From NCBI GenBank assembly GCA_003666325.1, contig QPIL01000118.1, positions 2,402 to 66,401 on the forward strand: DNA of 64,000 nt, given 5' to 3'. The notes beneath the pieces are model-generated. The model ran no database searches. It was not told the origin of the DNA and worked only from the letters and a program-made list of their open reading frames with translations. A program made the position numbers and the translations under genes. Of the stretch, positions 6,572-63,183 are shown one piece after another; within the stretch, counting starts at the first letter, position 1; each line of letters starts with the position of its first letter. The stretch comes from Methylococcales symbiont of Iophon sp. n. MRB-2018 (lineage in GTDB: Bacteria; Pseudomonadota; Gammaproteobacteria; Methylococcales; Methylomonadaceae).

Positions 6572-7513
6572 CTATATTTTAAGTTCTTTAGGCATAGAGA
6601 ACACGACTTTTTCTTCAATGCCCTGTATTTCTACAGCTGCCTCAGCACCCCATTGTTTGAGCTGATCAATAACCGCTTGCACTAAAATTTCTGGTGCTGA
6701 TGCCCCCGCTGTAACACCAACAACATCGACATTGTCAAACCAAGATTGATGCATATCCGCAGCGGTATCTATTAAGAAAGCTGTTTTACCTAATTGCTCT
6801 GCAATTTCACGTAAACGATTTGAGTTAGAGCTATTGGGCGATCCGACGACTAAAATAACATCGGCTGTTGCTGTCAATTCATGGATTGCATCTTGTCGGT
6901 TTTGCGTGGCATAACAAATATCGTCTTTTTTCTGCTCCTGAATATGAGGGAAAAAGGTATGCAAAACATCGACCATGATTTTTGTGTCTGTCATCGACAA
7001 AGTAGTTTGTGTGACATAGGCGAGATCTTTTGGGTTATTGACTTGAAGATGTTTAACATCGTCTGGAGTTTCTACTAGATACATACCACCTGTTGAATTA
7101 GCCAGTTTTTCATATTGCCCCATAGTGCCTTCTACTTCAGGATGTCCAGCATGACCTATTAACACGACTTCACGACCTGCTTTGGCATGTTTGGCAACTT
7201 GTATGTGAACTTTTGTGACTAAGGGGCAAGTGGCATCAAAAACTGTTAAATTTCGTTCTTTAGATTCATTTTGTACTTTTTTTGACACCCCATGTGCGCT
7301 AAAAATCAAATAAGAATTTTCAGGGACTTCACTGACATTTTCTATAAAAATAGCCCCTTTGCTTCTAAGTCCTTCTACAACTGTGCGGTTATGTACCACT
7401 TCATGGCGAACATAAATAGGAGCGCCAAATGATTCAATAGCTTGGTCAACAATTTCTATAGCACGGTCAACGCCAGCACAGAACCCACGGGGGTTAGCTA
7501 GTTTAATTCGCAT
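6572..7513 (-). CDS. ispH: 4-hydroxy-3-methylbut-2-enyl diphosphate reductase
   Basis: 313 aa. [19 protein letters not shown].., ..[11 protein letters not shown].., ..[13 protein letters not shown].. are canonical IspH/LytB motifs. Confidence 0.95.
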
Positions 7514-9314: not shown

Positions 9315-9540
9315 TTATTGACCTATAGCTGTGGAAACCTTAATTTGAGGCTGTATATAGGCTGAAATTTTCATCGTTAGCTAGTAATCTAAGTTTTGCC
9401 CATGCTTAGATCATTTATTCTTGAAAATGGTAGTAGTTCTGACACTTAATGCAGGCATAGCCAAAATTAATGTACTTGAATTCACATCATAAGTGCAACA
9501 TGCCTTACGCCTTAGTTGGTAAAAACAGTATAATGCTGGG

Positions 9541-28877: not shown

Positions 28878-29144
28878 TTTTTATATTCGATATAAAACTA
28901 TAAAACTATAAAAATTTCTAATTAGCTATCAAGTGTTTTTTTATGCTGAGGTCTCCTTAATACAATGGTTAAAAACAACACTGGCGAATTTAACCCATAA
29001 GTGCAACACTTCCATTCAAAAAATAGTACTTGAAAAGTTTTACCAGCGTGGTACCTTTAGCGATTCAATAATAATAATAATAAATAACCCTATCAATACC
29101 TTGTTTTTCATAGGGTTAAAAAATTTCATATAGAGAGGAAAAAA

Positions 29145-50345: not shown

Positions 50346-50728
50346 TGGATACTAACGGTTATCCAAATAAAATCTGTCGATCTAAAATAGTAATAACAGC
50401 ATTTTGGACATTATATAGTGTGTCGGTAGGGTGAGTATCACTTGATTTATTCATCGGCAACAAAGAATATTTGTTTATTCTTACCCCTTTGAATCATAAG
50501 ATGGAGTTGGTCTTTGATGATTAGCCTTGGTTGTCTTGGCATCGTTACTTGGGTTTTGGTGCAATAAAGGTATTGTACACAAAATCAAGTTACTCTTGTA
50601 TCTTGCCCAACTGTACAAAAACTGACCTCTCTGATTTAACCCCTTTTATTTTTATTGTTTAAAACGATCAAATACTTTGTATTATGAGAATAGGGCATTT
50701 ATTACAAATTATAGTTGACAATAGAAGT

Positions 50729-50747
50729 GATAATGATTATCATTATC
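50729..50747. promoter_or_regulatory. Fur box overlapping a sigma70-like promoter
   Basis: GATAATGATTATCATTATC matches 18/19 positions of the Fur consensus GATAATGATAATCATTATC. TTGACA is at 50715..50720, and the site lies 35 nt upstream of the first ORF of the iron locus. Confidence 0.8.
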
Positions 50748-50781
50748 ATTTGTATTAAATAAAATAATTAGGATTTAATTT

Positions 50782-51018
50782 ATGAAATCAACACCGTGCC
50801 AGACAGAAATATTATTAAACGCATCGACATGTGAAATTCAATACTGCCCTGATTGTGAAATGATTTATTTAATGATGGGTTCAATGACGCTACGGATCCC
50901 AACAGAGAATTTTAAAGAGCTAACTAAAGATTTAGGGAAAGGGCTTAACCAATTAAATGCTTATAAACGATCAGCAATCTATTTATCTGAACGACCTTTC
51001 TTCACGTTACATAGTTGA
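50782..51018 (+). CDS. small Cys-rich hypothetical protein (78 aa)
   Basis: Cys pattern C6, C17, C22-x2-C25. It is the first ORF behind the Fur box. No family recognised. Confidence 0.5.
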   Translation: MKSTPCQTEILLNASTCEIQYCPDCEMIYLMMGSMTLRIPTENFKELTKDLGKGLNQLNAYKRSAIYLSERPFFTLHS

Positions 51019-51024
51019 TATGCT

Positions 51025-51204
51025 ATGGCTGAAAAAACAATATCAAATGCGATTGTCTATCGCTTGCCTACTAAATCGACTAGACAAATAAACTATCAGT
51101 CTGGTGCTTTATTCCAAGGTGAGAAGTCAATCATTATTGAACACCAAAACGAGCATTATTTTTTGCGGATCACTAAAAGCGAAAAGCTAATTTTAACCAA
51201 ATAA
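51025..51204 (+). CDS. hemP: HemP/HmuP-type hemin uptake protein
   Basis: 59-aa ORF not in the supplied track. The C-terminus ..IIIEHQNEHYFLRITKSEKLILTK matches the HemP signature (I.H.G..Y.LR.T..GKLILTK). Confidence 0.7.
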   Translation: MAEKTISNAIVYRLPTKSTRQINYQSGALFQGEKSIIIEHQNEHYFLRITKSEKLILTK

Positions 51205-51302
51205 TTTTATAAACATATTACATTTTCCAAAGCCAGCCAAGACATTTTAATATGTCACTAGCAAGTCATGGAGTGTAGTTTCAAACTTTAAGGCGAAACT
51301 TC

Positions 51303-53462
51303 ATGCACAAAACAAAACTTTCAATTTTACTCCTTAGTACATTAAACCTACCTTTAGCAAATGCTAATGATGATATTTTAATGGTAAAACTCGACACAAT
51401 GGTCGTGTCTGGATCTAGAACAGAAAAAATATTATTGGACGTGCCAGTCAGTATATCGGTGATTACCCAAGAAGACATTCAACGTAGTGGTGCTGAGCAA
51501 GTCGGCGAGTTATTACGCGATATTCCAGGTGTAACAATTACCGATACTTCTGTCGCTGGTGCAAAACGAGTGCGTATTCGGGGTGAAGTTGGCTCAAACG
51601 TTTTAATTCTTATTGATGGTCAAGAAATCTCAGAACAGCGTTCGTCTCATGGTGCTGCTCCCTTATTGGTTGACTACAATATTATCGAACGGATTGAAGT
51701 TGTAAAAGGACCAGCATCAGTGTTGTATGGTTCTAAAGCGATTGGCGGTGTGGTTAATATATTCACTAAAAAAGGTGGGGATCGTGCTATCCAAGCTGCA
51801 TTAAATGCTTCTTACAATAGCTCCACTAATGGCTTTGACACTAATGCTCAGCTTTATGGGTCGGCTAATAATTTTGATTATAGGCTTTCGGTTAGCCGAG
51901 CAGAACATGGTGATAGAAAAGTGCCTGATGGCACGGATGACAACATTGCTTATAACAATAAGGATGGGGTATTAGAAAACTCTTCTTTTGATAATAGCAA
52001 TGTTAATGCTTATCTAGCTTATAACATGGATAAGCTCACTATTGGTGGTCGATTAGAGAGTTACAAAGCTGATACAGAATCACATACTTATAACGGCATT
52101 ATTGAAGACGGTTTAGAGGGTTTTCAGCTTGATTTACCAAAACGGGATCGTAAAAAGGCAAGTGTTTTTCTTGAGGCTAATGAGGTAACTGAAAACTTGG
52201 TAAAAATGCGCTTAGATGCATTTCATCAGGTAAGAGATCGTGATTTTTTACAAGATTTATTAGTGAATGTGCCTAATTTTGCAGGCCCTGGTTCTAATTT
52301 GTCGATAGATCTAGATTTGAATACCGTGTTTAAACAGAAAAACTCGGGTTTGCAAGCTCAATTTGATTTGGTATTTCATCCCGATCATTACATCGTCTCT
52401 GGTTTTGACTACAGCTATGACAAGATGAAATCCAATGTGATGACGGTAAACAAAACGACGTTTACAGGTGTACCCTTCCCATCACCACCGCTTTCTGTAA
52501 CAGACACAACGGTAGAATCTCATCAAGAAACAAAGGCGATTTATCTGCAAGATGAATGGTCGTTAAATGATGATATGACAATCACAGCAGGTATACGCCA
52601 AACATGGGTAGATACAGAGTTAGATAAAGAAAATAGTAGTGTTCTAAATAAGATAGACACAAGCGAGTCGCGTGCAGTAGGCAGTTTAGCTTTTGTCTAT
52701 TCAGGCATAGAAAATACGGCGATTAGAGCAGGCTGGTCACAAGGGTTTCGTGTACCGGCATTGCTAGAGCTGTTAGAAGGCACACCGCACGGTGGCTCAG
52801 GTGTATTACATGCTAATCCAGGCCTTGACCCTGAAACATCAAATAGTTATGAAATAGGTTTACGGTTCGATAAGCAACAATTTACCTTTGATGGCGCAGT
52901 TTTCTATACCAAGGCTAAAGATTATATTGCCACGATAAGTTGTTCATCAACAGTTTCGTGTCCAGCTAATTTTGGAAACAGAGATACACAATATACCAAT
53001 GTCAACGGTGCTAATACCTTTGGTATAGAGCTATTCAGTGCTTATCAATTCACTGATTCAATCTTTTCCATTTACAGCAATCTGACTTATTTGAGACGAA
53101 AGTTTGAGTTCACTGAATTTTCGACCTACCAAACAGGACATCCAGATTTTGAAGGTCGGATAGGCTTAGAAATGGCAACAACATATAACAATATAGATTA
53201 TTGGAGTGATCTATATATGCGTGGTGCGATTGATGCGGATAATGAATCACCAGACAGTAGCGCGCCATCAGGTAAAGACACTGAACATTATGACGGCTGG
53301 GCAACATTGAATTTATCAATGGGTGCAGATATTAATGCAAAAAACCCACTTAATATCTCCTTATACCTCAATAATATCTTTGATAAAACCTACACACCAT
53401 CACAAGAGAGTCTGATCGCACCAGGACGACACTTTATTGTGAAGGCAGGTATTAAGTTTTAA
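51303..53462 (+). CDS. TonB-dependent outer-membrane receptor (haem/siderophore class)
   Basis: 719 aa with a signal peptide, TonB box region ..DTMVVSGSR.. and plug ..VEVVKGPASVLYGS.AIGGVVNI... The C-terminal beta-barrel ends ..FIVKAGIKF. Confidence 0.9.
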   Translation: MHKTKLSILLLSTLNLPLANANDDILMVKLDTMVVSGSRTEKILLDVPVSISVITQEDIQRSGAEQVGELLRDIPGVTITDTSVAGAKRVRIRGEVGSNVLILIDGQEISEQRSSHGAAPLLVDYNIIERIEVVKGPASVLYGSKAIGGVVNIFTKKGGDRAIQAALNASYNSSTNGFDTNAQLYGSANNFDYRLSVSRAEHGDRKVPDGTDDNIAYNNKDGVLENSSFDNSNVNAYLAYNMDKLTIGGRLESYKADTESHTYNGIIEDGLEGFQLDLPKRDRKKASVFLEANEVTENLVKMRLDAFHQVRDRDFLQDLLVNVPNFAGPGSNLSIDLDLNTVFKQKNSGLQAQFDLVFHPDHYIVSGFDYSYDKMKSNVMTVNKTTFTGVPFPSPPLSVTDTTVESHQETKAIYLQDEWSLNDDMTITAGIRQTWVDTELDKENSSVLNKIDTSESRAVGSLAFVYSGIENTAIRAGWSQGFRVPALLELLEGTPHGGSGVLHANPGLDPETSNSYEIGLRFDKQQFTFDGAVFYTKAKDYIATISCSSTVSCPANFGNRDTQYTNVNGANTFGIELFSAYQFTDSIFSIYSNLTYLRRKFEFTEFSTYQTGHPDFEGRIGLEMATTYNNIDYWSDLYMRGAIDADNESPDSSAPSGKDTEHYDGWATLNLSMGADINAKNPLNISLYLNNIFDKTYTPSQESLIAPGRHFIVKAGIKF

Positions 53463-53504
53463 AGAGGATTGAAGGAGAAATTAGCACTAAAGGGTCGGAG
53501 TGAC

Positions 53505-53648
53505 GTGTATTGCACAACATCGACACAACAAATAATAAGAGATGAAAAATAATGAATAAATCAGTTTTAAAACAAGTTCTTTCGACATTGATATTTTTGC
53601 TAGCGTTAGCAGGGTGTTCAGACTCCGACAAAGTAGCTGTAGAACAAG
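53505..53648 (+). repeat. 144-bp duplicate (B1) of the leader plus first 32 codons of the 54281 lipoprotein gene
   Basis: 143/144 identical to 54234..54377. It generates a 44-codon chimeric ORF, 53552..53686. Confidence 0.9.
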
Positions 53649-53649
53649 T

Positions 53650-53735
53650 ACCTACACACCATCACAAGAGAGCTTGTTCGTACTAAGCCGACACTTTGTT
53701 GTGAAGGGCAGTATTAAGTTTTAAAGAAGATTGAA
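53650..53735 (+). pseudogene. 86-bp diverged duplicate (A') of the TonB-receptor 3' end
   Basis: Aligns with 53388..53473 (..tacacaccatcacaagagag..gtgaagg.cagtattaagttttaaaga.gattgaa) with about 10 mismatches. Confidence 0.85.
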
Positions 53736-53902
53736 TGATGCGTCAATTAATACCATTAGACATTTCTGATAATCCTCAGAAACAGCGACAAAAAGGTGGA
53801 AGTATAAGCAAATATTTCCACCAGAAGATATTGGTAGCAAAATAGCCACGCTTTAGTGCAATCTTTAGCGCATAAACCACGATTTGTTGGAGGTTTATAA
53901 AG

Positions 53903-54232
53903 GTGAATACAGCTTTTCTTTTAGTCCTGCTCACCTTGGGTGATGTGGGACAAATAAATGCCGCTTTTGTGAATACTAAAAGCCTTATTGCTTGCCAGAC
54001 TAAAGGAAAAATGCTGGGTGTGGTTATTTCTGCATCAGGCACCGAGATAGTAAAAAATAGCTGTTTTAAAAGTGACCTAATGCTTTCTAAATTTTCCCAT
54101 AGTCAAGCAGAGAAAAAAAAGGCGCGTACTAGCTATCTTATTGTAATGGAGGAGCAAGATATTGAAATAAGAGAATCCAAAAACAGAATGTATTGTTATC
54201 AAAGAAAAGATGGCATTAAATGGCAAAGATGA
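53903..54232 (+). CDS. hypothetical ORF within the inserted segment (109 aa, GTG start)
   Basis: ORF-level support only. It overlaps an antisense ORF (53776..54042) of similar size. The N-terminus is signal-peptide-like. Confidence 0.3.
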   Translation: MNTAFLLVLLTLGDVGQINAAFVNTKSLIACQTKGKMLGVVISASGTEIVKNSCFKSDLMLSKFSHSQAEKKKARTSYLIVMEEQDIEIRESKNRMYCYQRKDGIKWQR

Positions 54233-54280
54233 GGTGTATTGCACAACATCGACACAACAAATAATAAGAGATGAAAAATA

Positions 54281-55204
54281 ATGAATAAATCAGTTTTAAA
54301 ACAAGTTCTTTCGACATTGATATTTTTGCTAGCGTTAGCAGGGTGTTCAGACTCCGATAAAGTAGCTGTAGAACAAGCAGAAAATGGTGTAAAAAAAATA
54401 GGCATACTATTGGTCAATCACGGTTCAGTATCTGAAAAATGGCGAGATATGCTGACCGATGTTGATAGTGCTGTGCGAGATGAATTATTGGCTAATCCAA
54501 AAATTGGTGATGTTAAAACCGCCTTTATGGAATATACCGAGCCTTCTATTGCCACACAAATGAAAGCCTTTGATAAGGCTGGTTATGATGAAGTGGTGCT
54601 GGTGCCGCTTTTTCTAACGGTGAGCAGCCATTCTTTGACAGATATTCCTACTATTTTAGGAATAAATGCAGACCCAAAAGTGATTGCAACATTGGCTAAA
54701 GAAAAAATTGAAGTCTATCGGGCAAAAGCACGGGTAACGATTACACCTAATTTAGATTTTACAACCTTGCTTAAAAAGAATGTGCTGCGTCGAGTAAAAG
54801 CATTAAGTGATGGTTCAGGCAATGAGGGACTTGTTCTAGTTGCCTATGGAGACAAGGATTACAACCAGCAGTGGGAAGAAATGATGGATGAAATTGGTCG
54901 GTTCTTAAAGATAAAATTAGATATGGATACGGTTGCTTATGCTTGGTGTGGTCACTTGGTTAATTATTCAACAGAGCCGACTGAAAAGGCGATTGAGCAA
55001 GTTTTTGAATTGGAAGATAAAGTGTTGGTTGTGCCACTATTAGTCGCTTTTGACCCTTATTTTCAGATAGAAATAATCGAAACAGCAACCAAAAATGTTA
55101 AAAACTCACAAAATGTAATTTATAAACCTGACGCTATTCTGCCCGATGATAATTTAAACGACTGGGTAGTAGATATTACCAATCAAGTGGTATCGACTAT
55201 TTAA
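54281..55204 (+). CDS. lipoprotein with class II (CbiX/CbiK/SirB-type) chelatase fold
   Basis: Lipobox LLALAGC. ..GILLVNHGS.. and ..EVVLVPLFLTVSSHSLTDIP.., then ..LVLVAYGD.. and ..VLVVPLLVAF.., mirror the two-lobed CbiX/CbiK pattern. Confidence 0.65.
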   Translation: MNKSVLKQVLSTLIFLLALAGCSDSDKVAVEQAENGVKKIGILLVNHGSVSEKWRDMLTDVDSAVRDELLANPKIGDVKTAFMEYTEPSIATQMKAFDKAGYDEVVLVPLFLTVSSHSLTDIPTILGINADPKVIATLAKEKIEVYRAKARVTITPNLDFTTLLKKNVLRRVKALSDGSGNEGLVLVAYGDKDYNQQWEEMMDEIGRFLKIKLDMDTVAYAWCGHLVNYSTEPTEKAIEQVFELEDKVLVVPLLVAFDPYFQIEIIETATKNVKNSQNVIYKPDAILPDDNLNDWVVDITNQVVSTI

Positions 55205-55214
55205 GACGCTCAGC

Positions 55215-56693
55215 ATGATTACTCCTCTTAATGCTAATAAGCAGTGGAAACGGTTTGCCGTCACATTGCTTGTTGGTATTATTTTTTTCTGGTTTTGGTC
55301 ACAAGGACCTTTCAATAAACCCGTGCAGTTAATCAATTTAGTAGAAAATAAATCAGAATTTCTGACCCCTATTTTTATTCAAGATAATACTGAGATCCCG
55401 CAAAAAACATTTGCCTTACTTTCATCGAATAAAACGGAAAATACAGGTATCAGCCCCTATAAATTGGTCGGTCAGAAAAACATGACAAAATCTTATGGTT
55501 TGATTGCCGACCCCCATTACCAACCGTCAATGTTTGCAGAAGTCGGTGAGGCAATACATCAACGTGCAAAACTATTTAATTCATCACTTACAGCAATATT
55601 AAAACCAGCTTTGGATATGTTCTATATAGAGCAAGGTAATGTTGAAGGCAAGTTTTCAGGTTTATATATAGAAAGCACAGGATTAACTGAGCATATAAAA
55701 GGCTATGCCGGTGCAATTACACTAGGGATAAGTATTTCACCACAAGGTAAAATCAATAAAGTTCATTATATTGCTTCACAAGAAACTAGCAGTTATCTAC
55801 GTCAAATAGAGAATGCAGGATTTTATCAACAGTTTTCAGGAGTAGACCTTGATGGTAATACTCATCAAATAGATGCAGTATCAGGGGCAACGATTAGCAC
55901 TCAGGCAATGGCCAAAACGGTGACGGAGCTGTTAGATAAAGCAGCAGAATCACCTTTGTCTCTTTATATGGATGAGGATACAGAAAACACACGTATTGAT
56001 GCTCTACTCACTAATGAGTGGATTATTCAAATAGTTGTTATTACACTGATATTTAGTTATTTTTGGCAACCTTGGATAACAAGAACACGTAGCAGAACAA
56101 CAGTTGTAATGTTGCTTTCGGCTTTGTATATTGGCTTCTATCTGAATAATTCCTTTACCTATATCTCGTTATTACATCCATTTTTAGGTGTTACAGTTTC
56201 TCTATTAGTAGGTTTTTATTGTGCTTTAGTCTTACTCGCTGCAATTTGGAATAATAATACCTACTGTAAATTCGTTTGTCCTTATGGCAATGTACAGCGC
56301 TTGATAACACGTATGATGCCGAATTTACGGCAGTCATTTTTTGTTTCATCACGCTGGGTAAAGCGGGTAAGAACAGTGTTAACTTTAGTGATTGTAATAG
56401 CTGTCATTATTGGGAAAACCCAATGGGCTAGTTATGAATTATTTCCGGATCTATTTGGCTTGGAAGTACTCTCTTTCTGGTTTTATATTGCGCTTGCAAC
56501 TATTCTGATAGCAAGTATTTACCCAATGATTTGGTGTCGATTACTTTGCCCAACGGGAGAAGTTTTAGATTGGCTTAGTGAACTTGCTTCACCAACACGG
56601 ATTAAAAATAAACCTCAACCCAAGAAGTATTCAATTAGTTGTATAAAGTGTGCATCTAGTGAGTGTATCAGTAATAGGATAGATAATTTATGA
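55215..56693 (+). CDS. membrane redox protein: periplasmic FMN-binding domain plus NapH/NosR-like CX3CP polytopic domain
   Basis: The FMN_bind signature ..IDAVSGATISTQAM.. is followed by about 5 TM segments with CKFVCPYG and WCRLLCPTGE (CX3CP motifs as in NapH/NosR). Confidence 0.7.
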   Translation: MITPLNANKQWKRFAVTLLVGIIFFWFWSQGPFNKPVQLINLVENKSEFLTPIFIQDNTEIPQKTFALLSSNKTENTGISPYKLVGQKNMTKSYGLIADPHYQPSMFAEVGEAIHQRAKLFNSSLTAILKPALDMFYIEQGNVEGKFSGLYIESTGLTEHIKGYAGAITLGISISPQGKINKVHYIASQETSSYLRQIENAGFYQQFSGVDLDGNTHQIDAVSGATISTQAMAKTVTELLDKAAESPLSLYMDEDTENTRIDALLTNEWIIQIVVITLIFSYFWQPWITRTRSRTTVVMLLSALYIGFYLNNSFTYISLLHPFLGVTVSLLVGFYCALVLLAAIWNNNTYCKFVCPYGNVQRLITRMMPNLRQSFFVSSRWVKRVRTVLTLVIVIAVIIGKTQWASYELFPDLFGLEVLSFWFYIALATILIASIYPMIWCRLLCPTGEVLDWLSELASPTRIKNKPQPKKYSISCIKCASSECISNRIDNL

Positions 56694-56873
56694 CAAAATC
56701 AAAGGGGCGAGCATTACTTGATTTTTTAGACAAACTTAGCGTTAAAAATATTGCAAGTAACGAGCATTAAGCAACCAGGATCTGTTACAGCAAGAGCATT
56801 TGAAAGTATCACGCCGTTTTACTGGTCGGATGATTTGCGACCTTAGCCACAAAAAACTAGAATAGCTTCTGTT

Positions 56874-56891
56874 CATTAATGTACATTAATG
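56874..56891. promoter_or_regulatory. putative operator: tandem palindromes CATTAATG-ta-CATTAATG
   Basis: Two identical self-complementary octamers 10 bp apart lie immediately upstream of the antitoxin start. Confidence 0.5.
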
Positions 56892-56900
56892 GTGAGAATC

Positions 56901-57134
56901 ATGAGAAGCGTGACCTTCACAGAGTTCAGAAAAAATGCGTCAGCATTATTATCTGCCGTAGAAGAGGGTGAAATAATACAAGTTATCAGACATGGTAAGC
57001 CGATAGCAGAAATATCACCTTGCAAAGACACTACCAATCAATTTCCCTCTTGGAAGAAAAAAAGAATAAAGAAATCTATTAAGGGAGAAGAATTATCATC
57101 AATGATACTCAATGAAAGAGAATCTGCACAATGA
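56901..57134 (+). CDS. Phd/YefM-family antitoxin
   Basis: MRSVTFTEFRKNASALLSAVEEGEIIQVIRHGKPIAEISP is the typical Phd/YefM N-terminus. There is a 4-nt ATGA overlap with the PIN gene. An alternative start is at 56889. Confidence 0.8.
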   Translation: MRSVTFTEFRKNASALLSAVEEGEIIQVIRHGKPIAEISPCKDTTNQFPSWKKKRIKKSIKGEELSSMILNERESAQ

Positions 57135-57579
57135 GAGTGTTTTTTGACACATCTTCATTTGTAAAAAGATTTGTAGAAGAAGTGGGCAGCAAACAAGCTG
57201 ATGATATTACACAAAAATCATCAGCAATAGGTTTAAGTATTATCTGTTTTCCTGAGATAATATCAGCACTCAATAGAAAATTAAGGTCAGAATTTATAAC
57301 GGAAGAAACATATTTGGATCTAAAAAGTAATATTTTAGAGGATATAGAAGATGCCGATATAATTAACTTAACGCCAAGTGTATTAAAAAAACAACAGAAC
57401 TACTCGAAGTAAATATCTTGCGGTCATTAGATGCTATTCATATAGCCTGTGCCTTAGAATGGCAATCAGAGTTGTTTGTATCATCGGATAAAAGGCAAGT
57501 AACAGCTGCAATTAAATCTGGATTAAAAGTTGAATTTATAGAAGGATTTAAACCAAAAAGACAAAAAAGTATAAATTAG
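57131..57579 (+). pseudogene. vapC: VapC (PIN-domain) toxin gene interrupted by a frameshift in an A7 run
   Basis: The N-terminal part MRVFFDTSSFVKRF.. has the PIN Asp. The C-terminal part ..LRSLDAIHIACAL..FVSSDKRQ.. continues in the +2 frame after A7 at 57385..57391. An A8 run would give an intact 149-aa ORF. Confidence 0.75.
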
Positions 57580-57609
57580 TGTCCAGTTTATGGGGGGAGC
57601 TTTAGCTTA

Positions 57610-57695
57610 CTTTTTTCTTGTTGGATTAAAGAGTGGTTAATATACTTTTTTTATCGACTAACGAGTGCTGTACTTATGATGTAAATCCAAGGTTT
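57610..57695 (+). repeat. ~86-bp direct repeat, copy A (upstream of mnmA)
   Basis: c(t)nctt..ggattaaagagtggttaatatac..tttt.cgacta.cgagtg.tg.acttatgatgtaaat.caagg.tt recurs at 61341..61437. Confidence 0.8.
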
Positions 57696-57831
57696 AAAAA
57701 TTCATTTTAACCATCTAACTATCCATCTTTAAGCTGAATAATGGCTGGGTTATTTTTTCCAATTGCCGTAGTATTGATGCCTACTTGGCAAATGAACACA
57801 CTCTTATCTGCTTTAAAATCGTATCTGTATT

Positions 57832-58923
57832 ATGAGTAAACATATTATTGTGGGGATGTCTGGCGGGGTTGACTCATCGGTCACTGCTCTAAAACTAATA
57901 GAACAAGGTCATCAAGTTACTGGTTTATTTATGAAAAACTGGGAAGAAGATGATGGAACGGATTATTGCACAGCAATAGAAGACTTGGCTGACGCACAAC
58001 AAGTTTGCGACAAATTAAACATTGAATTAAAAACAGTCAATTTCGCCAGTGAATACTGGGATGAAGTATTTGCAGTTTTTCTATCGGAATTTAACAAAGG
58101 ACGCACACCCAACCCAGATATACTCTGTAATAAGCATATTAAATTTAAAGCTTTCTTAAACTATGCCATTGAAGACTTGGGGGCTGAATATATTGCCACC
58201 GGTCATTATGCCCAAGTCAAAGAAATCAAGGGTGAATATCAACTACTCAAAGGTCTGGATCGCAATAAAGAGCAAAGTTATTTTCTTTATACTATGGCAC
58301 AAAAGGCCTTATCCAAAACCCTGTTTCCCATTGGTAAACTAAACAAAGGTGAATTGAGAGCCATAGCTAAAAAAGCAGGCTTTAATAACCATAAAAAGAA
58401 AGACAGCGTTGGCATTTGTTTTATCGGAGAACGTAAGTTTACTGAGTTCTTACAGCGTTATTTACCCACACAACCAGGCGAAATGCGTACACCAGAGGGG
58501 CAATATATAGCGCAGCACCAAGGTCTGATGTATTACACTTTAGGACAAAGACAGGGCTTGGGGATTGGAGGTGTAAAAAACACCCCTGATGAACCTTGGT
58601 ATGTATTGGAAAAAGACTTAAATAATAATATCTTGATTGTTGGACAAGGACATGACCATCCATTAATACTACACAATACGCTAGAAGCTGGACAACTGGA
58701 CTGGTGTAGCAATAAGCCTTTATCTGACAGTATTCACTGCAAAGCGAAAACACGTTATCGCCAAAGTGATCAAGCCTGTTTTTTACAACCTTTGGAAAAT
58801 GATCGTTGTAAAGCAATTTTTGACAAGCCCCAAAGAGCAATTACACCCGGTCAATCTGTTGTTTTTTACGAGGGTGAAATTTGTTTAGGTGGAGGTATTA
58901 TTGAAGCTAAATATAATGAATAA
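57832..58923 (+). CDS. mnmA: tRNA 2-thiouridine(34) synthase
   Basis: 363 aa. PP-loop [11 protein letters not shown], ..[11 protein letters not shown].. and ..ATGHYA.. are present. Confidence 0.95.
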
Positions 58924-59109
58924 GTGTAATTACTTGCCAAGGGTAATAAACCAAAATTCACCTAAAAAATAGGGAGCAGGAAAACTTTAATGGATAGGAA
59001 TTTAACCGAGATAACTTATAAAGTGGCATGGACTTTGATTGAAAAACTTAATCATATAGCTTTTGATGAAATTAAAAAACCTAAAATAGCCATTAATAAA
59101 TAATAAATT

Positions 59110-60474
59110 ATGCAAACAAAGATAAAAATTAAAAACTTAGGGAAATTAACGCAGGGCGAAATTAAAATTCGCCCTTTAACTATTTTGACTGGAGAAAATG
59201 GGGCAGGTAAAAGTTTTTTTACCAAATCACTCTATTCAATTCTGAGTGTTTTTAATAAAAATGCCCTGCATATTGACATAGTGAAAAATATCAAACAAAT
59301 TGAAGTCTTATTATTTGCTTTTATTGAAAATATAAATCAAATTAGTGAAACAGATAGAGTTAGTGTTCAAAATCTGCAAATCAAATTGCAAGAGTTGGGA
59401 GAAAAATTAAATAGTGTTAGCGAAGAGAATATAGACATTTATCTTGCTTTTTCTTCATCTTGCTTTGAAGAAGTTGATGGGTTCTTGAGTACATTTGATG
59501 AATATTTAAAAGAAATAATTAAGAAGCCTACCAAACAAAGATCTGTTGCCAGAATTATTGATACCTTAAGCAAACTGTTTAAATCACTATGGGATAGTCT
59601 TGCAGATAGTAATGGTAGTTATGTGCGATTGTTAGGAGTTAATTTAGATGTAGAGATAAAAGAAAATTTCCAAATAGCAGATTTGTCAGAGTTAGTATCA
59701 TTTGAAGCAAATAAGTGTGAAATATCCTCTGACCTATTTACTATAAAATTAGGAAAAAATGGAATCGAATTTAATCTAAAACATAAATTTATAAATGAAG
59801 TGACAGGTTTGTCAAGAGTCGTATTCTTTGAGTCACCAGCCTATTGGAAAGTTCGTAATGCATTGATAGAAGCAAAACAGTTGAGCAGAAAATCAGATTT
59901 AACAGGAGTGCCTAAATATTTCTATGACTTAGATCAAACACTAACAACAAAATCCACTGAAAATATACCTGAAATTTCAAAATTAGCTGACAAATTGCAA
60001 CAAGCACTTGGAGGAAAATTCTCCTTTAAAAATGGAAGTTTCACTTTTAAAGATGACTTAGGAAATGAGCTCTCTAAGAATTTAGTTTCTTTTGGAATGA
60101 CAAACTTGGGTATGGTGCAAACATTACTAACAAATAATGTGATTACTAAAGGCTCGTTTGTATTTTTTGATGAGCCAGAAACTAACTTGCATCCCCAATG
60201 GCAAGTATTATTAATGCAAACTTTAATTAAACTAGCTGATCATGATATTAATGTTGTGATAGCGACACATAGTATTGATATGATCAAAGCTTTAGAGGTT
60301 GGTTTAAAAAATAAAGATAATTTAAACGATACTGTGTCTATAAACTATTTTAATGCAGAAGGCACATTAACTAAGTTTGAAGCTGAAAATAAGATTGATC
60401 AATTAATTGAATCTAGAGAAATACTTAGCGCATCTTATGAAAAGTTGTATTTTGAGGATGCACTGAGTGACTGA
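59110..60474 (+). CDS. ABC/SMC-like P-loop ATPase (AAA_15/AAA_21 type), function unknown
   Basis: 454 aa. Walker A GENGAGKS (28-35), signature-like VSFGMTNLG, Walker B/D-loop FVFFDEPETNLHP and H-loop VIATHS are present, with a ~250-aa insertion between the N- and C-terminal ATPase lobes. Confidence 0.8.
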   Translation: MQTKIKIKNLGKLTQGEIKIRPLTILTGENGAGKSFFTKSLYSILSVFNKNALHIDIVKNIKQIEVLLFAFIENINQISETDRVSVQNLQIKLQELGEKLNSVSEENIDIYLAFSSSCFEEVDGFLSTFDEYLKEIIKKPTKQRSVARIIDTLSKLFKSLWDSLADSNGSYVRLLGVNLDVEIKENFQIADLSELVSFEANKCEISSDLFTIKLGKNGIEFNLKHKFINEVTGLSRVVFFESPAYWKVRNALIEAKQLSRKSDLTGVPKYFYDLDQTLTTKSTENIPEISKLADKLQQALGGKFSFKNGSFTFKDDLGNELSKNLVSFGMTNLGMVQTLLTNNVITKGSFVFFDEPETNLHPQWQVLLMQTLIKLADHDINVVIATHSIDMIKALEVGLKNKDNLNDTVSINYFNAEGTLTKFEAENKIDQLIESREILSASYEKLYFEDALSD

Positions 60475-61042
60475 AATCAATACGGATGATTTTCTTAAAA
60501 CTATTCAGCATGCAAAAGATAGCAATAATCAAATTGAAAAAGCTACCTGCCAAGCTATTGCAATAGATGGTATTAATGGATTAGCTTGTTTTCTAGGATT
60601 TCAGGATGGGGAAATATCAAAAGTAGATTATTGTGATATAAAAAACCATAAGATACAATTTATAGAAGCATCAGATCTTGGTAAGACTATTGGTGATTTA
60701 TTAAGTGATATTAGTAGGGAAATAGTAAAAGCGAAGCAACAAGAAAACCCTACGAAAGACCTTGAAAAAAGAATTAGGAAAGCACGTTGGAAGCCAATAA
60801 AAATGGAGTTTCAATTGAAATTTCAGGGCTCCATAAATGTTATTGAAAGGTTGTATAGAAAAAATAGAATTAACAAAGACCCTACCTATCAATTGTTAAT
60901 TGTATGTACGAATAATACAGATATTCGGATATTGGATATATTAAGAAACGATTTAAAAATCTTCCTTGAAGGAATGATTAGAAAAGGTGTTGGTGTTTGT
61001 ACGACTAGAACTGTTTGCCAGGAACTTATATCTGCGAAATAA
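60467..61042 (+). CDS. 191-aa protein of unknown family, translationally coupled to the ATPase
   Basis: The GTG start has GAGGA 8 nt upstream and an 8-nt overlap (GTGACTGA) with the ATPase stop. No recognisable catalytic signature. Confidence 0.6.
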   Translation: MTEINTDDFLKTIQHAKDSNNQIEKATCQAIAIDGINGLACFLGFQDGEISKVDYCDIKNHKIQFIEASDLGKTIGDLLSDISREIVKAKQQENPTKDLEKRIRKARWKPIKMEFQLKFQGSINVIERLYRKNRINKDPTYQLLIVCTNNTDIRILDILRNDLKIFLEGMIRKGVGVCTTRTVCQELISAK

Positions 61043-61340
61043 GTGATCAGAAATAGCAGACAGATACTGTCTTAAAAATAAAGCCCTTACCCCTATTTTT
61101 AGGTTTAACTTTCAAGACCGCTTAGATTGCCCTTTATTTTGTTCACAAGAGCCAAGGCGAAAGTGAGGAGTTTACAGCTGTAAATAAGCACTTTCAACGC
61201 GGCTATTGGAGAAAGTAGAGGGTAACCGACATGATCATTGTTTTGGCGATGAAGCTAAGACTAAACCCTTGCTTTTTCATTAGCTAATGGGCATATCTTT
61301 GTGTTTCGGTCAAATGGCTATACATTTTCATCTTTCACTG

Positions 61341-61437
61341 CTTTTTCTTAGCGGATTAAAGAGTGGTTAATATACTGAGACCTCATACTCTTTTTACCGA
61401 CTACGAGTGTTGCACTTATGATGTAAATTCAAGGGTT
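61341..61437 (+). repeat. ~86-bp direct repeat, copy B (upstream of purB), with a 13-15-nt GAGACCTCA insertion
   Basis: Aligns with 57610..57695. The extra tgagacctcatactc is at 61376..61390. Confidence 0.8.
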
Positions 61438-61495
61438 ACGAAGTACGTTGAATAGTTACCAATAAGCTATAATCCCCATCTTAAAAAAAACATAA

Positions 61496-62887
<1,392 letters not shown>

Positions 62888-63183
62888 CATCAATCGTAGA
62901 TAATTGCTTTTACCTAGCCAACCCTCATTTTTTTAGCACATCTTTGAGATAATCTATTCTAGGGTTGTTATGCCATTTTCAAGAATAAATGATGTGATAT
63001 AGTGCCTGTTTTTGTGCCTTGTGTTTATAAAAAGTCTAAGCTTACTTGTCAAACTTATTTTCTTCCTCGAGACTATAAACAACCCACTTCATTTAAGGAT
63101 CTGTCTTTTGACACAGCCTTTTTTGCCTAATCTATTTCAAAACACTAAAATAGAAACCCTTTTACCTCATTACCCTTTAGTTT

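Follow-up and report, generated by a model that had tools for sequence, protein, structure and literature searches.

A two-gene cassette of an ABC-type ATPase and a putative PD-(D/E)xK-fold nuclease at the mnmA-purB junction of a Methylococcales symbiont: a candidate anti-phage module

Described ATPase-nuclease systems and the cassette

The closest described relatives of the locus analyzed here are defence systems in which an ATP-binding cassette (ABC) ATPase is encoded next to a small nuclease. The locus lies on contig QPIL01000118.1 of the Methylococcales symbiont of Iophon sp. n. MRB-2018, of which a stretch of 64,000 nucleotides (nt), called the window below, was analyzed. It is a cassette of two genes between mnmA and purB, which code for an ABC-type ATPase and a partner protein of 191 amino acids (aa). 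Among the described systems, WonAB from the WASA-1 prophage of Vibrio cholerae consists of an ABC ATPase and a variant PD-(D/E)xK nuclease (Adams et al., Nat Microbiol 2025, PMC12137116). Both genes are required, and the exchanges K34A in the Walker A motif of WonA and K71A in WonB each abolish defence. WonAB aborts infection by a shutdown of translation during which DNA is not degraded, and RNA of the translation apparatus was proposed as its target. A simple sequestration model of the toxin-antitoxin type was tested and rejected, because the toxicity of WonB needs active WonA. The same study relates WonAB to PD-T4-4 and to operons termed 'OLD-ABC ATPase + novel REase' (REase, restriction endonuclease). 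HEC-02 is a further validated defence system, composed of an ABC ATPase and a NERD-like PD-(D/E)xK protein, and again both genes are needed (Payne et al., bioRxiv 10.1101/2024.01.29.577857).

The cassette resembles WonAB in that a gene for an ABC ATPase, with the Walker A lysine at position 34 in both, precedes, in a two-gene operon, a gene for a small nuclease of the PD-(D/E)xK type, which in the cassette is putative, and both pairs are phage-borne. WonB comprises 105-170 aa, whereas the 191-aa partner contains an additional helical hairpin of about 60 aa. WonA carries the signature SSGQQ and an arginine at the Q-loop position, in contrast to SFGMTN and Gln188 in the cassette ATPase. HEC-02 shares with the cassette the adjacent, co-oriented two-gene arrangement as well as the D, the E and the helix K of the nuclease, and HEC-02A is the best match of the ATPase in PADLOC. 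However, HEC-02B proteins have about 170-185 aa and a (D/E/Q)xK motif where the partner shows E67-A-S69 (ExS), and the cassette ATPase, with its large helical insert, is more than 100 aa longer than the HEC-02A profile (337 positions). Operons termed 'OLD-ABC ATPase + novel REase' (Krishnan et al. 2020), in the form in which PMC12137116 cites and models them, and PD-T4-4 correspond to the cassette in architecture and in the broad group of the ATPase. Septu PtuAB and the PtuAB of type I-A retrons likewise combine an ATPase harboring a helical insert with a small nuclease. PtuB is an HNH nuclease, whereas the partner lacks an HNH motif, and no retron reverse transcriptase or non-coding RNA was found by the open reading frame (ORF) list and an Rfam scan. 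PARIS (AriA), Gabija (GajA) and OLD have the super-group of the ABC ATPase in common with the cassette. Their Toprim effectors are separate (AriB) or fused to the ATPase (GajA, OLD), whereas no Toprim domain is detectable in the cassette.

The cassette pair thus appears as a remote, divergent relative of WonAB, HEC-02 and PD-T4-4 with an altered active-site motif and an enlarged partner. It probably represents an anti-phage abortive-infection module, acquired horizontally as a two-gene operon, in which an ABC ATPase sensor acts together with a small restriction-enzyme-fold nuclease. A reading made from the letters of the window alone (hereafter the sequence-only reading) had proposed an undescribed anti-phage module. 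The defence role is still the best reading, and no description of the subfamily was found in the sources checked. The architecture of ABC ATPase plus small nuclease was already known from WonAB, HEC-02 and PD-T4-4, so the cassette is not categorically new.

Insertion of the cassette between mnmA and purB

The ORF list contains mnmA, a 37-aa ORF, both cassette genes and purB at exactly the coordinates given by the sequence-only reading. The features at the junction are as follows.

57832-58923: mnmA (ORF list)
58935..61448, no strand: segment specific to this lineage in comparison with a sister symbiont genome (blastn), consisting of the cassette and non-coding flanks
59110..60474, + strand: ABC-type ATPase, 454 aa (Pfam, PADLOC, PHROGs, motifs, structure model)
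60467..61042, + strand: partner, 191 aa, GTG start, putative divergent PD-(D/E)xK (restriction-enzyme-fold) nuclease
61523-62887: purB (ORF list)

The closest available genome is that of the Methylococcales symbiont of Hymedesmia (locus L089), whose MnmA is 95% identical. In this genome purB follows 334 nt after mnmA with no gene between them. Window positions 57746-58934 correspond to L089 5904-7103, and positions 61449-62970 to L089 7351-8858. Only 247 nt separate the two blocks in L089, which delimits the window-specific segment to 58935-61448. Since mnmA and purB are adjacent in the sister genome and lack the cassette there, the two-gene cassette is a real insertion at the conserved mnmA-purB junction, as had been proposed. 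Its GC content (0.27-0.34) is below that of the flanks (0.35-0.41). The accompanying suggestion that the cassette had taken over the slot of hflD did not hold. In two more Methylococcales loci, mnmA and purB are spaced by 65 and 32 nt without hflD; the two genes are thus directly adjacent in three related loci, and displacement of hflD was rejected.

The closest copies of the cassette (L001, L100 and L101) share 78-85% nucleotide identity with it and all adjoin dctM in other organisms. Homology begins at position 58979 in L001, 59109 in L100 and 59018 in L101, and stops in all three at the stop codon of the partner gene. The shared unit therefore consists of a leader of about 90-130 nt and the two genes.

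The ATPase

The motifs listed in the sequence-only reading are present in the ATPase: Walker A GENGAGKS with K34, the signature-like VSFGMTNLG, Walker B FVFFDEPETNLHP and the H-loop VIATHS. Among 27 homologues with 43-83% identity, no exchange is found at G28, G33, K34, S35, Q188, S327, G329, D354, E355 or H387. As judged from the sequences, all motifs of an ABC ATPase (Walker A, Q-loop, signature, Walker B and H-loop) are hence present and conserved. Pfam assigns AAA_21 (1.2e-16) and AAA_15 (4.8e-16). The top match in PADLOC is HEC-02A (PDLC04213, 3e-31), whose profile aligns in two stretches, the best covering residues 269-448 against profile positions 151-327. It is followed by an ATPase model labelled HEC-02B (8e-26), PD-T4-4_A (6e-25), NsnB (2e-24) and AriA (5e-19), and at lower significance by Old (5e-14), GajA (5e-10) and PtuA (partial, 1e-10 to 1e-12). 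The NCBIfam model of PtuA gives 24.8 bits against a cut-off of 500. In PHROGs, phrog_14430 matches over the full length at 3.5e-88.

The AlphaFold2 (AF2) model of the ATPase (pLDDT, the local distance difference test in its predicted form, 87.3; predicted template modelling score, pTM, 0.87) shows an ABC head into which about 150 aa of purely helical structure are inserted (residues ~34-195). A long C-terminal helix (428-453) ends the protein, and no further C-terminal domain follows. Foldseek matches the model best to the PtuA proteins of Septu and type I-A retrons (E ~1e-8, probability 1.0, template modelling (TM) score ~0.4, identity 11-14%). Alignment of profiles with hhalign relates the ATPase to WonA at 98.5% and E 4e-15, restricted to the C-terminal 138 columns. 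Pfam, PADLOC and Foldseek thus agree with the earlier reading as an ABC-type ATPase and place it in the defence-associated AAA_15/AAA_21 group.

The partner protein and its candidate active site

The NCBI annotation holds the same 191-aa product (P0001). As had been described, its gene overlaps that of the ATPase by 8 nt (GTGACTGA), and a GAGGA sequence is located 8 nt upstream of the GTG start. The partner had also been said to be tightly coupled to the ATPase and to belong to no recognizable family, and searches of Pfam, NCBIfam, PADLOC, PHROGs and PDB agree with this. No entry of Pfam, NCBIfam, PADLOC or PDB matches it meaningfully, either alone or as a profile, and its one signal in the libraries is a weak match to phrog_34018 (3.4e-5). 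No match to HNH was obtained in Pfam or PADLOC, and neither the ATPase nor the partner matched Toprim or DUF4435 in these two libraries.

The AF2 model of the partner (pLDDT 90.6, pTM 0.87) consists of four strands, a long helical hairpin (72-132) and a strand-helix-strand unit. D54 directly precedes strand 55-59, and the end of strand 62-68 carries E67; next come helices and then strand 140-147. In 140 homologues of the partner D54 is invariant, while D34, E67 and K118 are each found in 139. Position 69, evaluated in 139 members, is occupied by serine in 84, threonine in 43 and lysine in 12. Within the partner family this lysine occurs only in a clade of SUP05-type symbionts; it is also found in HEC-02B, WonB and the Haemophilus and Lachnospiraceae outgroups. 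A lysine two or three residues before D54 is common (K52 in 62 homologues, K51 in 34). Based on this conservation, D34, D54, E67 and K118 form the candidate active site, and the partner is a putative, divergent nuclease of the PD-(D/E)xK fold. The D-x9-D-x-K motif that had been suggested as catalytic does not coincide with the conserved residues. A degenerate Toprim-like reading of the partner found no support either, and LLIVCTNNTD, on which it was based, was rejected as a Toprim element: in the model it forms the hydrophobic strand 140-147, followed by N149.

Profile comparisons place the partner family in a chain of related groups that leads towards known nucleases. They included nine WonB and seven WonA sequences from Supplementary Table 4 of PMC12137116. 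With hhalign, the core family is linked to a group termed Inter (98%, E 6e-15), Inter to a Haemophilus group (82%, E 1e-5) and the latter to a Lachnospiraceae group (96%, E 2e-9). The merged family (core, Inter and SUP05) aligns with the merged Haemophilus/Lachnospiraceae group at 84% and E 8e-6. In the profile alignments D54 corresponds to the aspartate of 'PD', E67-x-S69 to 'E-F-K' and K118 to the conserved helix lysine. In the alignment with WonB, YKIDG pairs with D34, KCD with K52-D54 and ELK with E67-x-S69; Ser69 therefore occupies the site of the essential WonB lysine. When 46 partner-type proteins of all groups, true HEC-02B included, are aligned jointly, exactly the D, the E and the K stay invariant. 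Sub-threshold Pfam matches among these 46 proteins fall to the nuclease families SduA_C (five), NERD (two) and Cap4_nuclease (one). Downstream of the genes of more remote ATPase relatives lie ORFs of about 170-205 aa with classic PD...E-x-K motifs, which in L061, L072 and L073 encode true HEC-02B proteins (PADLOC 1e-51, 1e-71 and 2e-32). Weak Foldseek matches of the partner are often PD-(D/E)xK nucleases (hantavirus L endonuclease, HamA, phage endonucleases), which is a hint only.

Linkage, distribution and mobility of the pair

Close homologues of the ATPase were collected from 185,579 species genomes. Nearly every one is followed directly by a homologue of the partner, either overlapping or at a distance of at most about 10 nt; only contig ends and two loci that are disrupted or odd deviate from this. 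The expected co-occurrence of homologous pairs in other genomes was thus found. The two proteins also co-diverge, as their pairwise identities correlate with r = 0.89, a value reached by none of 500 permutations. The pair is carried by about 40-45 of the species genomes, and its recurrence in some 40 genomes indicates that it is not a chance arrangement of ORFs. The partner family is rare, with 19 members in a word-index search of 5.8 billion proteins and about 100 clusters in an exhaustive profile search of 1.84 billion representative proteins. Most hosts are aquatic Gammaproteobacteria (Methylococcales, SUP05/Thioglobaceae symbionts, Vibrio, Aeromonas, Photobacterium, Alteromonadaceae and Acinetobacter); the pair also occurs in Bdellovibrionales and in a few further groups.

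The pair usually stands alone amid housekeeping genes, and its sites differ between lineages.

Between rnr and rlmB: several Methylococcales genera
Between hemE and trpA-accD: SUP05 symbionts
Between epmA and dctM: L001
At lpx genes
Other sites

In L087 (10001-11959) the ATPase gene starts 36 nt past rnr and the partner gene shares 4 nt with the start of rlmB, and in L102 (5001-6846) the partner gene shares 10 nt with the start of trpA. L005, L011, L016, L021, L022, L026 and L028 also contain the cassette inside housekeeping operons with almost no spacer. Several of the insertion contexts consist of RNA or translation genes, the independent events being too few to call this an enrichment. Location in defence islands, which the sequence-only reading had suggested to check, is not the rule for the pair.

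Phage carriage was observed as well. In IMG/VR, a search with the ATPase recovered four phage or prophage contigs with the pair. Two of them are clearly phage and carry it between replication and terminase genes, and a third encodes a P2 gpA-like nickase. A search of IMG/VR for the partner by peptide patterns found none, tblastn against the GenBank phage collection gave weak partial matches only, and a search of viral contigs for wonA by its quantitative polymerase chain reaction primer found none.

For the Bathymodiolus thermophilus symbiont (CP024634), the published OLD-ABC+REase model lists MS2017_RS00600/00605 in the available tables of PMC12137116, and not the cassette-family pair between hemE and trpA (L102). 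Two related systems thus coexist in this genome. Photobacterium damselae, of which the chromosome CP046752 carries a pair of the cassette family, is not named in the available supplementary tables of that study, Table 4 included, assuming that the genome was part of its data set. The cassette family thus seems to escape the published models.

Interpretation of the cassette

Taking WonAB, HEC-02 and PD-T4-4 as models, we infer a mechanism for the cassette in which the nuclease would be bound and controlled by the ATPase. The ATPase, likely an ATP-sandwich dimer, probably has a sensory and regulatory part, and the partner is probably the effector nuclease. A phage cue would license the nuclease through binding or hydrolysis of ATP, and cleavage of nucleic acid would then abort the infection. 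Either DNA or, as has been proposed for WonAB, RNA of the translation apparatus may be the target.

Several results weigh against this interpretation. Foldseek detected no significant relative of the partner model in PDB and BFVD, with best E values of 0.2-0.3 and TM scores below 0.3. At E <= 1 the partner has no PADLOC match to HEC-02B, and it has none to PD-T4-4_B, although PD-T4-4_A matches the ATPase. Its profile links to the characterized nucleases are limited: the Inter group aligns with WonB only moderately (81%, E 1.2e-5), the merged family less well (50%, E 1.6e-4), and the link of the merged family to six true HEC-02B proteins is weak (8.7%, E 0.004), with the motif in the same register. 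K71, which is essential in WonB, is replaced by Ser69 in the window copy, and serine or threonine is present at this position in 127 of 139 members. Moreover, the site between rnr and rlmB is held across several genera of Methylococcales and looks stabler than is typical for defence genes. Among 146 immediate neighbours, no integrase or transposase is found in the 25 commonest families, and defence genes are sporadic while housekeeping genes predominate.

These genomic features could also be expected of other kinds of gene pair. A solitary two-gene unit without integrase or transposase in the commonest neighbour families, placed tightly inside housekeeping operons, ending exactly at the partner stop codon and retained for long at one site in Methylococcales, would suit a selfish module of the addiction (toxin-antitoxin-like) type, in which the ATPase restrains a nuclease toxin and the pair is harmful to lose without conferring real protection from phages. 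The Pfam label of AAA_21, 'putative AbiEii toxin, Type IV TA system' (TA, toxin-antitoxin), points the same way. However, a simple sequestration model was rejected for WonAB, where the toxin needs the active ATPase (PMC12137116), the closest characterized relatives protect against phages, and the pair resides in the accessory region of phage genomes, so that this explanation is unlikely. A housekeeping role in nucleic-acid maintenance, with an RNA quality-control or DNA-repair nuclease working together with the ABC ATPase, would account for the stable location in several Methylococcales genera, for the missing defence-island signal and for the RNA and translation contexts (rnr-rlmB, mnmA-purB, efp-epmA next to dctM, with cysS or asnS near other copies). 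The independent insertions are too few to show an enrichment of such neighbours, and the very patchy occurrence in about 45 of 185,579 species genomes, with about 100 partner clusters in 1.84 billion representatives, speaks against a core function. So do the absence from a sister genome with 95% identical MnmA, the low GC content and the presence on phage contigs. All detectable relatives are defence families, and a maintenance pair is very unlikely.

The replacement of the lysine at position 69 raises the question whether the partner is still a nuclease or now serves the ATPase as an adaptor or sensor without catalytic activity. The restriction of lysine to the SUP05-symbiont clade and to HEC-02B, WonB and the outgroups, the inactivity of WonB K71A (PMC12137116) and the lack of a significant structural match to any nuclease in Foldseek would be consistent with a loss of catalysis. 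D34, D54, E67 and K118 are nevertheless invariant or nearly so in the clade with serine or threonine, which speaks for an active site that has kept its metal binding, and a lysine is common at -2 or -3 from D54. Active PD-(D/E)xK enzymes are well known in which the catalytic lysine has been replaced or has moved, and a non-catalytic partner is quite unlikely. A more speculative and rather doubtful possibility is that the pair forms a separate, unnamed clade of conflict systems of ABC ATPases and nucleases that differs in catalysis or target, as the exchange of the WonB lysine for serine or threonine with retention of the four conserved residues and the gain of the 60-aa hairpin might suggest. 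Its insertions between rnr and rlmB, between mnmA and purB and at efp-epmA could then be tied to translation, and it would move as a bare two-gene unit without a recognizable recombinase.

A defence role is the best reading of the cassette. If active, the pair extends the group of WonAB, HEC-02 and PD-T4-4, in which ABC-ATPase sensors are combined with small restriction-enzyme-fold nucleases. The subfamily formed by this partner and ATPase is undescribed in the sources checked. It is missed by current detection tools, because the partner has no model in PADLOC, Pfam or NCBIfam, and searches based on defence islands would miss it as well, since the pair sits alone in housekeeping operons. With serine or threonine at the position where the lysine of WonB is indispensable, the partner family represents a natural active-site experiment. 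In addition, the pair is found in methanotrophic and sulfur-oxidizing symbionts of sponges and mussels, in which little is known about phage defence.

Leader, flanks and neighbouring insertion

The non-coding parts of the lineage-specific segment and a repeat within it are listed below.

58979..59109, + strand: conserved upstream leader that contains a 37-codon ORF (58990-59103), defined by DNA homology with L001 and L101
61043..61448, no strand: non-coding tail of 406 nt, part of the lineage-specific segment and not common to other cassette copies
61342-61438 (approximately the last 95 nt of the tail): short dispersed repeat, with copies at 57612-57696, 9474-9531 (-) and 28986-29010 (-)

The 37-codon ORF had been considered as a third component of the cassette. 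The ORF exists, but its reading frame is not conserved. In L001, indels of 2 and 7 nt break the frame and leave 16 codons, L101 contains in-frame stops, and L100 has no upstream homology; the best tblastn match of the 37-aa peptide has an E value of 1.3. The ORF was thus rejected as a gene. Kept as DNA and not as a frame, the region is most readily understood as a leader or promoter, and positions 58979..59109 probably comprise the promoter and 5' untranslated region. Scans for promoters and terminators gave nothing above shuffled expectation, and Rfam and tRNA scans of the region nothing relevant. An inverted repeat flanking the cassette (I2, 58953-58974 and 61091-61112) was rejected as the end of an element, because it lies outside the unit common to other cassette copies.

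The tail contains no ORF of at least 60 aa, has no Rfam match and shows no homology to L001, L100 or L101. Its predicted RNA fold is stabler than that of shuffled controls (z = -3.0, with none of 100 shuffles as stable). No related locus was found to contain the dispersed repeat, whose core is GTGTTGCACTTATGATGTAAATTCAAGG; it may represent a promoter, a repetitive extragenic palindromic (REP)-like element or a recombination scar. In the empty site of L089, the spacer (7180-7330) contains an inverted repeat resembling a hairpin and a long series of 7-nt tandem repeats (CCTTTAG/TCTTTAG), both absent from the window.

A second lineage-specific block of 7.3 kb (50430-57745) is located just upstream of mnmA and is absent from the sister genome, in which an outer-membrane efflux gene lies about 260 nt from mnmA at this site. 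Thus, two insertions bracket mnmA, and one copy of the dispersed repeat is found close to the right end of each block. The second block encodes a TonB-dependent receptor, a CbiX-domain protein, an FMN_bind/Fer4_5 membrane protein and a Phd/YefM antitoxin. Within 56889-57579, the antitoxin gene (Pfam 2.7e-8) precedes two short ORFs (93 aa and 53 aa), which have no Pfam match at E <= 0.001 and by eye only resemble a PIN/VapC toxin interrupted by a stop codon. In L100, a Phd/YoeB toxin-antitoxin pair (317-878) is situated about 0.9 kb upstream of the cassette copy, which echoes the Phd-type gene near the cassette of the window.

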